Positions 1 to 5,013 of a DNA stretch of 7,103 nt are shown here, piece after piece. The stretch comes from a virus (lineage: Duplodnaviria; Heunggongvirae; Uroviricota; Caudoviricetes): positions 1-7,103 of the IMG/VR virus record IMGVR_UViG_2600254997_000006. One strand, 5' to 3'. Under the pieces are notes generated by a model. The model was not told the DNA's origin. It did not search any database and worked only from the letters and a program-made list of their open reading frames with translations. Position numbers and translations under genes: made by a program. Position 1 is the first letter of the stretch; each line of letters begins with the position of its first letter.

Positions 1-36
1 GGCGGCTTCCTTTCCATTAACAAACTTTCGCAGTAA
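1..36 (+). CDS. 3' end of the upstream tail gene (lambda L-like tail tip assembly protein), partial
   Basis: Frame 1 is open from the window edge and reads GGFLSINKLSQ before a TAA at 34-36, 4 nt ahead of the K start at 41. The assignment rests on lambda synteny (L-K-I-J), not on recognisable domain content in 11 residues. Confidence 0.4.
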   Translation, partial: GGFLSINKLSQ

Positions 37-40
37 TCCC

Positions 41-784
41 ATGACACAGACAGAATCAGAGATTCTGGCGCACGCCCGGCGATGTGCGCCAGCGGAGTCG
101 TGCGGCTTCGTGGTGAGAACGCCGGAAGGGGAAAGATATTTTCCCTGCGTGAATATCTCCGGTGAGCCGGAGGCGTATTTCCGGATGTCGCCGGAGGACT
201 GGCTGCGGGCAGAGATGCAGGGTGAGATTGTGGCGCTGGTCCACAGCCACCCCGGTGGTCTGCCCTGGCTGAGTGAGGCTGACAGGCGGCTGCAGGTGCA
301 GAGCGATTTGCCTTGGTGGCTGGTCTGCCGGGGTGAGATTCATAAATTCCGCTGTGTGCCGCATCTTACCGGGCGGCGCTTTGAGCACGGGGTGACGGAC
401 TGTTACACGCTGTTCCGGGATGCTTATCATCTGGCGGGGATTGAGATGCCGGACTTTCATCGTGAGGATGACTGGTGGTGTAACGGCCAGAATCTCTATC
501 TGGATAATCTGGAGGCCACAGGGCTGTATCAGGTGCCGTTGTCAGCGGCGCAGCCGGGCGATGTGCTGCTGTGCTGTTTTGGTTCATCGGTGCCGAATCA
601 CGCCGCAATTTACTGCGGCGACGGCGAGCTGCTGCACCATATTCCTGAACAACTGAGCAAACGAGAGAGGTACACCGACAAATGGCAGCGACGCACACAC
701 TCCCTCTGGCGTCACCGGGCATGGCACGCATCTGCCTTTACGGGGATTTACAACGATTTGGCCGCCGCATCGACCTTCGTGTAA
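41..784 (+). CDS. K: Tail tip assembly protein K, with an N-terminal JAMM/MPN metalloprotease-like domain and a C-terminal NlpC/P60 (C40) cysteine peptidase-like domain
   Basis: 247-aa ORF. HSHPGGLPWLSEAD fits the JAMM motif H-x-H-x7-S-x2-D, and AESCGFVV upstream supplies the expected conserved Glu. GVTDCYTLF followed by NHAAIY and LLHH looks like an NlpC/P60 Cys/His core. The sequence is near-identical to lambda K as I recall it. An alternative start at ATG 185 (MSPEDWL...) has a GGAGG ~13 nt upstream and gives the 199-aa length I recall for annotated lambda K; ATG 41 has no obvious Shine-Dalgarno and may be translationally coupled to the upstream gene. Confidence 0.9.
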   Translation: MTQTESEILAHARRCAPAESCGFVVRTPEGERYFPCVNISGEPEAYFRMSPEDWLRAEMQGEIVALVHSHPGGLPWLSEADRRLQVQSDLPWWLVCRGEIHKFRCVPHLTGRRFEHGVTDCYTLFRDAYHLAGIEMPDFHREDDWWCNGQNLYLDNLEATGLYQVPLSAAQPGDVLLCCFGSSVPNHAAIYCGDGELLHHIPEQLSKRERYTDKWQRRTHSLWRHRAWHASAFTGIYNDLAAASTFV

Positions 785-1329
785 AAACGGGGGCCGAAGC
801 TATCCGTGCGCTGGCCACACAGATCCCGGCGTTTCGTCAGAAACTGAATGACGGCTGGTATCAGGTGCGCATTGCCGGGCGTGATGCAGGCGAAACCGAA
901 TTATCTGCCCGTCTTAATGAGCCGCTGGCAAATGGTGCCGTGATCCACATCGTGCCGCATCTGGCGGGAGCTAAAAGTGGCGGTGTGTTTCAGGTGGTGC
1001 TGGGGGCGGCGCTGATTGCGGTGGCATGGTGGAACCCTGTGGGCTGGCTGGGTGCCGCGGCTGTATCGGGCATGTATGCGGCAGGGGCCAGTATGATCCT
1101 GGGTGGTGTGGCCCAGATGCTGGCACCGAAAGCCCGGACGTCCACAGCGACCAGCACGGATAACGGTAAGCAGAACACCTATTTCTCATCACTGGATAAC
1201 ATGGTTGCCCAGGGCAATGTTCTGCCTGTTCTGTACGGTGAAATGCGCGTGGGGTCTCGTGTGGTTTCTCAGGAGATCAGCACGGCAGATGAAGGGGACG
1301 GTGGTCAGGTTGTGGTGATTGGCCGCTGA
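682..1329 (+). CDS. I: Tail assembly protein I
   Basis: 215-aa ORF whose N-terminus MAATHTLPLASPGMARICLYGDLQRFGRRIDLRVKTGAEAIRALA and C-terminus TDNGKQNTYFSSLDNMVAQGNVLPVLYGEMRVGSRVVSQEISTADEGDGGQVVVIGR match lambda I as I recall it. It has a central hydrophobic Gly/Ala-rich segment. It overlaps the 3' end of K by 103 nt in a different frame, as in lambda. GAGAGG lies ~11 nt upstream of the ATG. Confidence 0.9.
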   Translation: MAATHTLPLASPGMARICLYGDLQRFGRRIDLRVKTGAEAIRALATQIPAFRQKLNDGWYQVRIAGRDAGETELSARLNEPLANGAVIHIVPHLAGAKSGGVFQVVLGAALIAVAWWNPVGWLGAAAVSGMYAAGASMILGGVAQMLAPKARTSTATSTDNGKQNTYFSSLDNMVAQGNVLPVLYGEMRVGSRVVSQEISTADEGDGGQVVVIGR

Positions 1330-1389: not shown

Positions 1390-4300
1390 ATGGGCAAAGG
1401 AAGCAGTAAGGGGCATACCCCGCGCGAAGCGAAGGACAACCTGAAGTCCACGCAACTGCTGAGTGTGATTGATGCCATCAGCGAAGGGCCGATTGACGGT
1501 CCGGTGGATGGATTAAAAAGCGTGCTGCTGAACAGTACGCCGGTGCTGGACAGTGAGGGGAATACCAATATCTCCGGTGTCACGGTGGTGTTCCGGGCTG
1601 GTGAGCAGGAGCAGACTCCGCCGGAGGGATTTGAATCCTCCGGCTCCGAGACGGTGCTGGGTACGGAAGTGAAATACGACACGCCGATCACCCGGACCAT
1701 CACGTCGGCAAACATTGACCGACTGCGTTTTACCTTCGGTGTGCAGGCACTGGTGGAAACCACCTCAAAGGGGGACAGGAATCCGTCGGAAGTCCGCCTG
1801 CTGGTTCAGATACAACGTAACGGTGGCTGGGTGACGGAAAAAGACATCACCATTAAAGGCAAAACCACCTCACAGTATCTGGCATCGGTGGTGGTGGGTA
1901 ACCTGCCGCCGCGCCCGTTCAATATCCGGATGCGCAGGATGACGCCGGACAGCACCACAGACCAGCTGCAGAACAAAACGCTCTGGTCGTCATACACCGA
2001 AATCATCGATGTGAAACAGTGCTACCCGAACACGGCACTGGTCGGCGTACAGGTGGATTCGGAGCAGTTCGGCAGCCAGCAGGTGAGCCGTAATTATCAT
2101 CTTCGCGGGCGCATTCTGCAGGTGCCGTCGAACTATAACCCGCAGACGCGACAATACAGCGGTATCTGGGACGGAACGTTAAAACCGGCATACAGCAACA
2201 ACATGGCCTGGTGTCTGTGGGATATGCTTACCCATCCGCGCTACGGCATGGGGAAACGTCTTGGTGCGGCGGATGTGGATAAATGGGCGCTGTATGTCAT
2301 CGGCCAGTACTGCGACCAGTCAGTGCCGGACGGCTTTGGCGGCACGGAGCCGCGCATCACCTGTAATGCGTACCTGACCACACAGCGCAAGGCGTGGGAT
2401 GTGCTCAGTGATTTCTGCTCGGCGATGCGCTGTATGCCGGTATGGAACGGGCAAACGCTGACGTTCGTGCAGGACCGACCGTCGGATAAGGTGTGGACCT
2501 ATAACCGCAGTAATGTGGTGATGCCGGATGATGGCGCGCCGTTCCGCTACAGCTTCAGCGCCCTGAAGGACCGCCATAATGCCGTTGAGGTGAACTGGAT
2601 TGACCCGAACAACGGCTGGGAGACGGCAACAGAGCTTGTGGAGGACACGCAGGCCATTGCCCGTTACGGTCGTAACGTCACGAAGATGGATGCCTTTGGC
2701 TGTACCAGTCGGGGGCAGGCACACCGCGCCGGGCTGTGGCTGATTAAAACAGAACTGCTGGAAACGCAGACCGTGGACTTCAGCGTGGGTGCTGAAGGGC
2801 TTCGCCATGTACCGGGCGATGTCATTGAAATCTGCGATGATGACTATGCCGGTATCAGCACCGGCGGGCGCGTGCTGGCGGTGAACAGCCAGACCCGGAC
2901 GCTGACGCTCGACCGTGAAATCACGCTGCCATCCTCCGGCACCACGCTGATAAGCCTGGTTGACGGGCAGGGTAATCCGGTGAGCGTGGAGGTTCAGTCC
3001 GTCACCGACGGACTTAAGGTGAAAGTGAACCGGGTTCCTGACGGCGTTGCCGAATACAGCGTGTGGGGGCTGAAGTTGCCGACGTTGCGTCAGCGCCTGT
3101 TCCGCTGTGTGAGTATCCGTGAGAACGATGACGGCACGTATGCCATCACCGCTGTGCAGCATGTGCCGGAGAAAGAGGCCATCGTGGATAACGGGGCGCA
3201 CTTTGACGGCGACCAGAGCGGCACGGTGAATGGTGTCACGCCGCCAGCAGTGCAGCACCTGACCGCAGAAGTCACCGCAGACAGCGGGGAATACCAGGTG
3301 CTGGCGCGCTGGGACACGCCGAAGGTGGTGAAGGGGGGGAGCTTTATGCTTCGCCTGACCGTGGCAGCGGATGACGGCAGTGAGCGGCTGGTCAGCACGG
3401 CCCGGACGACGGAAACCACATACCGCTTCAGGCAGCTGGCGTTGGGGCGTTACACGCTGACAGTCCGGGCGGTAAATGCCCGGGGACAGCAGGGCGATCC
3501 GGCGTCGGTATCGTTCCGGATTGCCGCACCGGCAGCGCCGTCACAGATTGAGCTGACGCCGGGCTATTTTCAGATAACCGCCACGCCGCATCTTGCGGTT
3601 TATGATCCGACGGTACAGTTTGAATTCTGGTTTTCTGAAACGAAGATTTCAGATGTCTCACAGGTGGACAAATCTGCCCGCTATCTTGGTACGGCACTGT
3701 ACTGGGTAGCCTCCGGCCAGAATATTAAGCCGGGCCATGATTATTACTTTTATGTTCGCAGTGTGAATACCGTTGGCAAATCGGCATTCGTGGAGGCTGT
3801 CGGCCAGCCGGGTAATAATCCTGAAGAGTATCTCAATTTTTTTGAAGGGAAAATAAACAGCACCCTGCTGGGGCAGGAGCTGAATGATCGTATTAATGCC
3901 TCTGCATTGCGCAGTGAAGTTGAGCAACTGGAGGATGAGGTCAATCAGCGACTGGAGAGTGATATTGCCGGGGTGACCCAAAAAATCGGGGAAACTGAAA
4001 ACAGCCTCACGCAGCTGGTTGCTAAAAAAAATGATGAGCAGTCACTGGCCATATCCCAGGTGAGTCAGAAAGTGGACAACGTCAGTAGCGAACTCACGCA
4101 AACGGTCAGTCAGAGTAATGAGGAGAATGCACGCCAGATTGCGCAGGTTCGTCAGTATGTGGATGAAAAAAGCAGTGAAATCATCTCGACGACAGACAAA
4201 AAACTGGGCGAGCAGGAAGCAACAATCCAGCAGATACAAAAGGTTCAGACAGACACCAGTAATAACCTGAACAGTATGTGGGCCGTGAAACTGCAGCAGA

Positions 4301-5013
4301 TGCAGGATGGTCGCCTTTACATTGCGGGTATCGGTGCCGGTATTGAGAATACCCCTGACGGTATGCAGAGTCAGGTGCTGCTGGCGGCAGACAGGATTGC
4401 GTTCATTAATCCGGAGAACGGTAACACCACTCCAGCACTGGTCACGCAGGGGGGACAGACGTTTATCAATGAAGCGCTGATTAAGACCCTTATTGCTCCC
4501 ACAATTACCAGCGGTGGCAGTCCTCCGGTATTTTCCCTGACATCAGACGGAAAGCTGACTGCTAAAAATGCGGATATCAGTGGCAGTGTGAATGCGAACG
4601 CCGGGACGCTCAACAATGTCACGGTAAATGAAAACTGTACGATTAAGGGCATGCTGGAGGCGACCCAAGTCAGAGGGGATTTCGTTAAAGCTGTATCCAA
4701 ATCATTTCCGAAACAGGCTGGTACGTGGGGTAACACGGAAACACCAAACGGGACGGTTACAGTCACCATCAGCGATGATCATAACTTTGACCGTCAAATC
4801 ATTATTCCGCCCATTATCTTTAACGGAATAGCGTATAGCTATCCGGGAAGTGGTAATAACCCGGGAGGTACAAGTTACACGGGTTATGGTTTTGAAGTTC
4901 GCAAAAACGGTGTATTAATCGCATCCAGAGAAACTAAAGGGGCCATTCCCGGTAGCTACAGTGCGGTTATTGATATGCCGAGTGGCAGGGGGAAGCGTCA
5001 CTCTGGAGTTTAA
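1390..5013 (+). CDS. J: Host specificity protein J (central tail fibre / tail tip protein); frame as it stands ends prematurely at TAA 5011-5013
   Basis: 1207-aa ORF with GGAG 8 nt upstream of ATG 1390. The N-terminal ~800 residues ([47 protein letters not shown]...) are near-identical to lambda J as I recall it. It contains an FN3-like segment (...[24 protein letters not shown]...[27 protein letters not shown]) and a long heptad-like Gln/Glu/Ser-rich segment at ~3830-4300. The extreme C-terminus is displaced to another frame (next feature). Confidence 0.92.

Follow-up and report, generated by a model that had tools for sequence, protein, structure and literature searches.

Assembly of the tail tip of bacteriophage lambda requires gpK, a protein that is absent from virions (PMC10721106, PMC12617516). 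The JAMM motif, EXnHS/THX7SXXD, whose Glu is the acid-base catalyst, was cited for lambda K already in 2003, and Ambroggio et al. described the Pro and the Cys beside this Glu as conserved and semi-conserved residues (PMC300881). In their passages on tail tip assembly proteins, Iyer, Burroughs and Aravind (2006; PMC1779556) assigned JAB and NlpC/P60 domains to protein K (TAPK), which adjoins TAPI, and described the N-terminus of TAPI as a ubiquitin-like (Ubl) beta-grasp domain with a conserved glycine at its end; in their proposal, TAPI is processed by TAPK at this C-terminal glycine of the Ubl domain. The lambda start codon and a frameshift in the lambda reference are not discussed in those passages. 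At least one recent structural review treats K as "199 residues", with a peptidase domain at residues 52-182 only (PMC7291167).

We analyzed a 7,103-nt stretch of phage DNA (hereafter, the window) that begins at the 3' end of L and carries the complete K gene. Nucleotides 1-800 of the window share 99.4% identity with phage cdtI and 96.3-96.4% with lambda; the window is the tail-tip region of a cdtI-like lambdoid phage, a relative of lambda rather than lambda itself. Sequence related to the window was found in 4375 of 5426 complete E. coli genomes. The gene order L (1-36)-K-I-J, which lambda shares, fits the position of lambda-type TAPK in the siphovirus tail operon, and both the domain architecture of K and its neighborhood, with K next to the Ubl-bearing I and then J, are those given for the TAPK family in the 2006 passages. 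Gene I overlaps the last 103 nt of K in a different frame, and its ATG, 103 nt before the K end, is kept in 126 of 139 loci. The features discussed below are collected in Table 1.

Table 1. Features in and around gene K (nucleotide positions in the window).
Feature	Position	Strand	Remarks and source
L (tail tip gene), 3' end	1-36	+	TAA stop 34-36; frame-1 translation GGFLSINKLSQ*; "minor tail protein L" in matching records
L-K spacer TCCC, 4 nt	37-40	+	without Shine-Dalgarno sequence ahead of the K start
Gene K, full CDS	41-784	+	247 aa, 28.4 kDa; TAA stop 782-784; ORF list
First 48 K codons	41-184	+	encode JAMM helix 3-15, strands 20-27 and 30-35; include P17, E19 (nt 95-97), C21, G22, N38
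JAMM/MPN+ (Prok-JAB) domain (putative metalloprotease), residues 3-105	47-355	+	Pfam PF14464, PDB sequence/profile matches, Foldseek
Internal GGAGG (169-173) and in-frame ATG 185-187 (codon 49, historical lambda K start)	169-187	+	
JAMM zinc-ligand segment (predicted) H68-S-H70-x7-S78-x2-D81	242-283	+	direct sequence reading
NlpC/P60 (C40) domain (predicted cysteine peptidase), residues 111-224	371-712	+	Pfam PF00877
Candidate NlpC/P60 triad	C121, 401-403; H187, 599-601; H199, 635-637	+	family alignment position
Gene I (ubiquitin-like tail assembly/tail tip protein)	682-1329	+	ORF list; Pfam PF06805; proposed substrate or partner of K
J	1390-5013		ORF list
lom-like ORF, then start of the side tail fibre region	downstream part of the 7.1-kb window		ORF list

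The protein read from ATG 41 is not new to the databases. RefSeq entries WP_000194814.1 and WP_000194780.1, named "C40 family peptidase" by PGAP, have the identical sequence with the ATG 41-equivalent start (247 aa, 744 nt), under a name that covers the C40 (NlpC/P60) domain only and hides the JAMM domain. The exact 247-aa protein occurs on at least 1000 contigs, its names including, besides "C40 family peptidase", [quoted passage not shown]. Lambda gpK (AAA96551/NP_040598), annotated with 199 aa, is the orthologue (96.3-96.4% DNA identity), and K translated from re-sequenced lambda DNA differs from K of the window at 7 of 247 positions.

The choice of start codon decides what K contains, since translation from ATG 41 gives 247 aa and translation from the in-frame ATG 185 gives 199 aa. 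The first-pass annotation had favored ATG 41; its statements about the sequence (the L stop, the 4-nt gap, the absence of a Shine-Dalgarno sequence at ATG 41, the GGAGG at ATG 185 and the motifs) are all correct. The segment HSHPGGLPWLSEAD, residues 68-81 (nt 242-283), fits H-x-H-x7-S-x2-D exactly and, read as H68-S69-H70-PGGLPWL-S78-EA-D81, corresponds to the H-S/T-H-x7-S-x2-D zinc-binding segment. The upstream AESCGFVV occupies residues 18-25, with E19 at nt 95-97 within P17-A-E19-S-C21-G22, and this conserved JAMM Glu is, as had been argued, encoded solely if translation begins upstream of nt 95. E19 aligns with the Glu of 2KKS (PNEACG) and of PfJAMM1 (VEVCG); phmmer and profile matches to the JAMM structures 2KKS, 2KCQ and 5LDA, with starts at query/profile positions 2-13, pair P17-x-E19-x-C21-G22 with P-x-E-x-C-G.

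The two products were compared against Pfam, as the first-pass annotation had suggested, and the outcome bore it out. The 247-aa product matches Prok-JAB (PF14464) over residues 3-105 (profile 3-113 of 114) with E = 2.7e-14 and 53.5 bits, the gathering score being 25 bits, and in addition matches NlpC/P60 over residues 111-224. The 199-aa product matches only the C-terminal half of Prok-JAB (profile 63-113) with 23.9 bits, below the cut-off, and retains the NLPC_P60 match; for database clusters of the 199-aa form, precomputed Pfam gives PF00877 alone. The 48-residue N-terminal peptide by itself matches profile positions 3-41 of Prok-JAB with E = 3.4e-5. Thus, K is a two-domain protein, as had been proposed and as already published in the 2006 passages on TAPK (PMC1779556).

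Structure prediction gave a similar picture. The AF2 model of K has a mean pLDDT of 73, with 88-93 for residues 1-30, 80 for residues 31-40 and mostly 80-93 over the N-terminal domain, so that residues 1-40 are among its best-predicted stretches; they form a helix (3-15) and two strands (20-27 and 30-35). A Foldseek search of the PDB returned JAMM/MPN proteins for all of the top 50 matches, PfJAMM1, Rpn11 and CSN5 being the best, and the first of these was 5LDA, PfJAMM1 with ubiquitin-like SAMP2 (E = 1.5e-5, 109 columns, rmsd 2.9, target-normalised TM 0.64). The N-terminal domain is a JAMM/MPN+ domain and a putative zinc metalloprotease, in whose predicted site E19 would be the general base, H68, H70 and D81 the zinc ligands, and S78 an oxyanion or bracing residue. 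In the product of ATG 185, the JAMM domain would be broken and unable to catalyze.

The predicted K domain shares its fold and the complete E...HxH...S..D motif with PfJAMM1 (5LDA), 2KKS, 2KCQ, AfJAMM (1R5X) and Rpn11/CSN5. PfJAMM1 and HvJAMM1 cleave ubiquitin-like SAMPs from conjugates. Unlike such stand-alone JAMM enzymes, the JAMM domain of K is fused to an NlpC/P60 domain and encoded in a phage tail operon, with no E1/E2-like partners.

The C-terminal domain is of the NlpC/P60 type, a predicted papain-like cysteine peptidase; its match to PF00877 spans the whole profile (1-105 of 105) with 49.2 bits against a cut-off of 23. Of 69 distant representatives, 68-69 retain each of D120-C121, H187 and H199 (68 in the case of C121, H187 and H199), and from their position in Pfam and PDB alignments, together with general knowledge of the family, C121, H187 and H199 are a candidate triad. 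Profile matches were also obtained to the structures of MepS/Spr, CwlO and LytE, and the peptidoglycan endopeptidases MepS/Spr, CwlO, LytE and RipC have in common with K a catalytic domain with conserved Cys and His. However, the sequence matches to these cell-wall enzymes are weak, and K scores far below the cut-offs of their NCBIfam equivalogs. A peptidoglycan substrate is doubtful for K, since, in contrast to those enzymes, K is cytoplasmic and not present in virions.

The first 48 codons of K are conserved at the protein level in close and in distant relatives, as expected if they are translated. Among 20 relatives at 68-97% identity, 14 positions are invariant (I8, L9, A12, A16, P17, E19, S20, C21, G22, V24, Y33, P35, N38 and F47), while conservation is poor over residues 1-7. 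In 1.84 billion representative proteins, a search found 2785 relatives. Among the best 150, the alignments of proteins of approximately full length (about 230-270 aa) start at query residue ~3-10 and at residue ~3-15 of the relative, these N-termini being gene-caller predictions themselves. Distant conservation was counted over 69 of the listed representatives, at 32-58% identity: G22 and N38 are present in all 69, E19 in 68, F47 in 67 and C21 in 65, and, further along, no change is seen at H68, H70 or D81, with S78 present in 64. Position 49 is Ile in 44 of them, Met in 11, Leu in 8 and Val in 4, so the Met at which the shorter product would begin is mostly not conserved.

At the DNA level, 211 loci from scans of viral contigs and genome contigs and from annotated records gave 139 unique K coding sequences. 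The first viral-contig scan had returned only loci that were 96-100% identical and too uniform for substitution analysis; Salmonella- and Yersinia-type K seeds were then added. About half of the genome-contig loci are lambda DNA contaminating unrelated assemblies. Pooled Nei-Gojobori dN/dS over the 139 unique sequences was 0.34 for codons 1-48, 0.25 for codons 49-110 and 0.21 for codons 111-247. Third-position diversity in codons 1-48 was 1.86 times that of positions 1 and 2, and gaps there comprised whole codons only, at codons 1-3 and, a single one, at codon 45. The synonymous-site analysis that the first-pass annotation had called for thus favors coding of these codons: they are under purifying selection, with dN/dS somewhat higher than downstream.

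No purine-rich Shine-Dalgarno sequence is seen in CAAACTTTCGCAGTAATCCC, the 20 nt that lead up to ATG 41. The position of the start next to the end of L is widely kept: in 139 of 142 non-redundant loci the nearest in-frame start is an ATG at codon 1 or within 3 codons of it, and the L stop lies -4 to +13 nt from the K start in 134 of the 142. The commonest spacings are 5 nt, 4 nt, or the overlaps TGATG and ATGA; the lambda-type spacer has 5 nt (ATCCC), compared with the 4 nt (TCCC) of the window. Since the L stop abuts the K start and no Shine-Dalgarno sequence is present, it is plausible that translation of K is coupled to that of L by termination-reinitiation. A scan of nt 1-1500 for promoters and terminators revealed nothing above shuffled expectation near the K start. 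Extension of K further upstream, into L, was also considered: the cdtI-type K frame is open for 25 codons above ATG 41 and has a TTG at -14. This candidate was rejected because the lambda type, in which the L and K frames stand in another relation, has an in-frame stop 7 codons upstream, so that the extension is not conserved. No published N-terminal peptide of gpK was found in the literature, since gpK has not been detected in virions by mass spectrometry (PMC10721106).

The first-pass annotation gave a length of 199 aa for annotated lambda K, and this is indeed the length in J02459 and NC_001416 (14276..14875). The lambda start does correspond to ATG 185, but a preference for a start with a Shine-Dalgarno sequence is not the whole reason for it. 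A single G is missing from the lambda reference (J02459/NC_001416), at a point between 14266 and 14267 that corresponds to G175 of the window. When the window and NC_001416 are aligned with an E. coli prophage and re-sequenced lambda imm21, the reference reads GGAGGC-TATTTCC against GGAGGCGTATTTCC. The reference ORF from ATG 14133 reads MTQTESAILAHARRCAPAESCGFVVSTPEGERYFPCVNISGEPEA and then shifts into nonsense; the frame that the reference uses further downstream has no start before ATG 14276. Without the G, the first 45 codons are out of frame, and ATG 14276 therefore becomes the first usable start.

The G-less sequence is rare. As a 48-mer it occurs in only four phage records (J02459, NC_001416 and two further lambda-named ones), and the 49-mer with the G occurs in 64, including independently sequenced lambda (KT232076, LC730321, PV340536), DE3, HK629/HK630 and lambda hybrids. 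In re-sequencing reports, "14266 +G" presumably appears among the differences from the reference, classed as "intergenic" between L and K. The historical 199-aa K is better accounted for by the missing base than by a choice between two starts, and this well-known length of lambda K is an artefact of annotating the 1982 reference sequence. The short annotation has since spread by homology, and gene callers that look for Shine-Dalgarno sequences give it too. As a result, records are inconsistent: K has 247 aa in PGAP-annotated E. coli prophages and in lambda PV340536 (744 nt), 199 aa in HK630, DE3 and lambda imm21 (where the G is present and the annotation was copied by similarity), 211 aa in KT232076 and 239 aa in cdtI (NC_009514). 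Our literature search turned up no paper that says outright that lambda K has been given the wrong start or that the reference is in error at 14266/7, and none that calls the missing G a sequencing error as opposed to a real mutation of the sequenced stock.

Taken together, these data make it very probable that K is translated from ATG 41 as a 247-residue, ~28.4-kDa, non-virion tail-tip assembly protein with two predicted peptidase domains, its initiation most likely coupled to L, and that the 199-aa lambda K is an artefact. The sequences show directly that the first 48 codons are coding, which domains K contains and that the reference lacks a base; use of the start, coupling and enzyme activity follow by inference. 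The opposite reading, in which ATG 185 is the sole start and nt 41-184 are an untranslated L-K intergenic region, has on its side the classical annotation in J02459, NC_001416, HK630, DE3 and lambda imm21 and the strong Shine-Dalgarno sequence upstream of ATG 185. However, the 144 nt in question, read in the K frame, are constrained in the way of coding sequence, contain the codons for the most conserved JAMM residues and are required for a JAB match that passes the threshold, and the classical annotation is accounted for by the missing reference base; this reading is already strongly disfavored and we regard it as very improbable. We give hardly any credence to an in-frame start between the two, such as CTG 65 (239 aa) or GTG 149 (211 aa), annotated in NC_009514 and KT232076, respectively. 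CTG is not a normal start codon, and initiation at GTG 149 would remove E19, C21, G22 and strands 1-2; conservation, moreover, already begins at I8/L9, and the start at codon 1 is conserved throughout the loci examined, abutting the L stop in 134 of 142.

Use of both starts deserves more attention, though we consider it unlikely. Full-length K would then be made from ATG 41 and, from ATG 185, a 199-aa isoform with an intact NlpC/P60 domain and a truncated, inactive JAMM domain, possibly with an assembly or regulatory role of its own. The GGAGG at 169-173 stands 11 nt ahead of ATG 185-187, and the combination of GGAGG and ATG is found in 79 of the 139 unique coding sequences (the E. coli-type lineage); the ATG 185 start is often chosen by gene callers, with 199-aa clusters of thousands of members. 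With a strong GGAGG before ATG 185 and no Shine-Dalgarno sequence before ATG 41, some initiation at the internal site might occur. Yet the GGAGG, seen in 84 of 139 unique coding sequences, is simply part of the codons for E43-P44-E45-A46 (GAG CCG GAG GCG), a conserved E-P segment, and Salmonella-type lineages have GAA CCG ACA ATG there, with no Shine-Dalgarno sequence. Codon 49 is a non-start codon (ATA, ATT, ATC, TTA or CTG) in 25 of the 139, and position 49 is Ile, Leu or Val in 56 of the 69 distant representatives. The internal Met49 and GGAGG site is thus lineage-specific, and the variation at codon 49, together with the lineages devoid of a Shine-Dalgarno sequence, indicates that an internal isoform is not a conserved feature. 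A fragment without JAMM helix 1 and strands 1-2 would, moreover, probably misfold according to the model.

Under translation from ATG 41, the following sequence of events seems most likely. Ribosomes that end L would reinitiate 4 nt downstream, at the ATG without a Shine-Dalgarno sequence, and the first 48 codons would supply the first helix and the first two strands of the JAMM domain, including the predicted catalytic E19. K would then serve assembly in the cytoplasm, as a protease or chaperone that acts through its JAMM site (E19, H68, H70, D81, S78) and/or its Cys-His site (C121, H187, H199) on gpI or another tip component while the J-I-L-K initiator is formed.

A more specific version of this scheme can be formulated for gpI. 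The Ubl domain of gpI (Pfam PF06805) covers residues 14-97, and its end, AGAKSGG, occupies residues 95-101 (A-G-A-K-S-G100-G101). In the cryo-EM structure of lambda tails, gpI is resolved from residue 101 onward only (PMC11101478), which fits cleavage and fits a flexible Ubl domain equally well. Lambda-type gpK may be a complete JAMM enzyme, its Glu hidden by the truncated annotation, that removes the Ubl domain from gpI as the tail tip is assembled, cutting after the conserved Gly100-Gly101; we offer this as a tentative possibility that is rather less than an even bet. The idea of gpI cleavage itself dates from the 2006 passages on TAPK; new, if it is true, would be its demonstration and the inactivity of lambda K constructs based on the 199-aa form.

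The 247-aa, two-domain K is correct but already known for this sequence, since RefSeq/PGAP annotates it and the architecture was published in those same 2006 passages; what is added here is the explanation of the lambda reference discrepancy. For the window, the 247-aa product is a settled and routine matter, and the practical value of the result lies in lambda itself. In J02459 and NC_001416, and in several records that took over their annotation by similarity, K is still a 199-aa protein without the JAMM Glu, and K cloned from this annotation would express a broken metalloprotease domain. Such truncated constructs could help explain why the role and the partners of K have stayed obscure; a two-hybrid screen found no interaction of K with other tail proteins, with a construct that may be of either K length. 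With the start corrected, the proposed processing of the ubiquitin-like gpI by K can be tested directly and, if the proposal is true, a bacterial virus would possess a deubiquitinase-like maturation step.

A single base accounts for the short form of K annotated in phage λ. G175 of the window has no counterpart in the λ reference (J02459/NC_001416), where it would lie between nucleotides 14266 and 14267 (about position 475 of locus L001, one of the collected K loci). Another 64 phage records, independently sequenced λ among them, do have the G; the version without it is confined to four records. Because of the missing G, the first 45 codons of K are frameshifted in the λ reference, and the 199-aa K annotation is due to this frameshift.

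The 199-aa product is also found in thousands of database entries (protein clusters P0056, P0061, P0064 and P0081) despite DNA that carries the intact 247-codon frame. These are mainly automatic calls from Logan and ENA assemblies, the gene caller apparently favoring the internal ATG, which has a Shine–Dalgarno (SD) sequence upstream. As a result, the annotation of the N-terminal JAMM metalloprotease (JAB) domain is lost from these entries.

Near-identical λ DNA was also encountered in genome assemblies of unrelated organisms, including Neobacillus, Pseudoxanthomonas, Shewanella, Bradyrhizobium, Leeuwenhoekiella, Kitasatospora and Vibrio, mostly as low-coverage contigs. The K proteins of these loci are 96–98% identical to that of the window, as is K of λ itself, and several of the contigs measure about 48.4–48.5 kb. 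They look like contaminating λ control or spike-in DNA.

Features downstream of the K start and loci with λ-like DNA
Feature	Window position	Remarks
K/I overlap	682-784	
Gene I codons G100-G101	979-984	
Strong hairpin	1347-1372	I–J intergenic region (stop of I, 1327-1329; start of J, 1390)
J-like central fibre protein	1390-5013	1207 aa
λ-like DNA in unrelated assemblies		loci L088-L101, L109, L111, L113, L114, L118, L121, L124, L127-L129, L133

The annotated start of gene I differs between records. In λ, cdtI and a matching E. coli prophage record (L005), it is an ATG inside K, 103 nt from the end of that gene, whereas in two λ-type prophage records (L006 and L007) PGAP places it at a GTG that overlaps with the stop codon of K. 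The ATG is kept in 126 of the 139 unique loci; the GTG is present in about 79 and is absent from the window (GTGTAA). Synonymous divergence of K is lower inside the overlap (pS 0.28 vs. 0.44), which is what translation in both frames would predict. The ubiquitin-like (Ubl) domain of the gene I product, as defined by Pfam, starts only at M14 (ATG 721).

The I–J hairpin, AAACCGCC-TCCG-GGCGGTTT followed by TTGTCGTTT, was not called by a simple terminator scan. Nucleotides 1335–1385 have an MFE of −17.4 kcal/mol (z = −2.8 vs. shuffles), and the SD sequence of J (GGAG, 1378–1381) is located 3′ of the hairpin, which could be an attenuating or stabilizing RNA structure ahead of J. The J-like protein of the window has 1207 aa and λ J 1132 aa, a difference that would imply a receptor-binding region at the C-terminus that is longer than that of λ or of another type.

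The Ubl domain ends with AGAKSGG (residues 95–101, also in λ gpI), and in the λ tail cryo-EM structure gpI is resolved from residue 101 onward (PMC11101478). This coincidence is compatible with K cutting off the Ubl domain, as proposed by Iyer et al. 2006 (PMC1779556), but equally with simple disorder.
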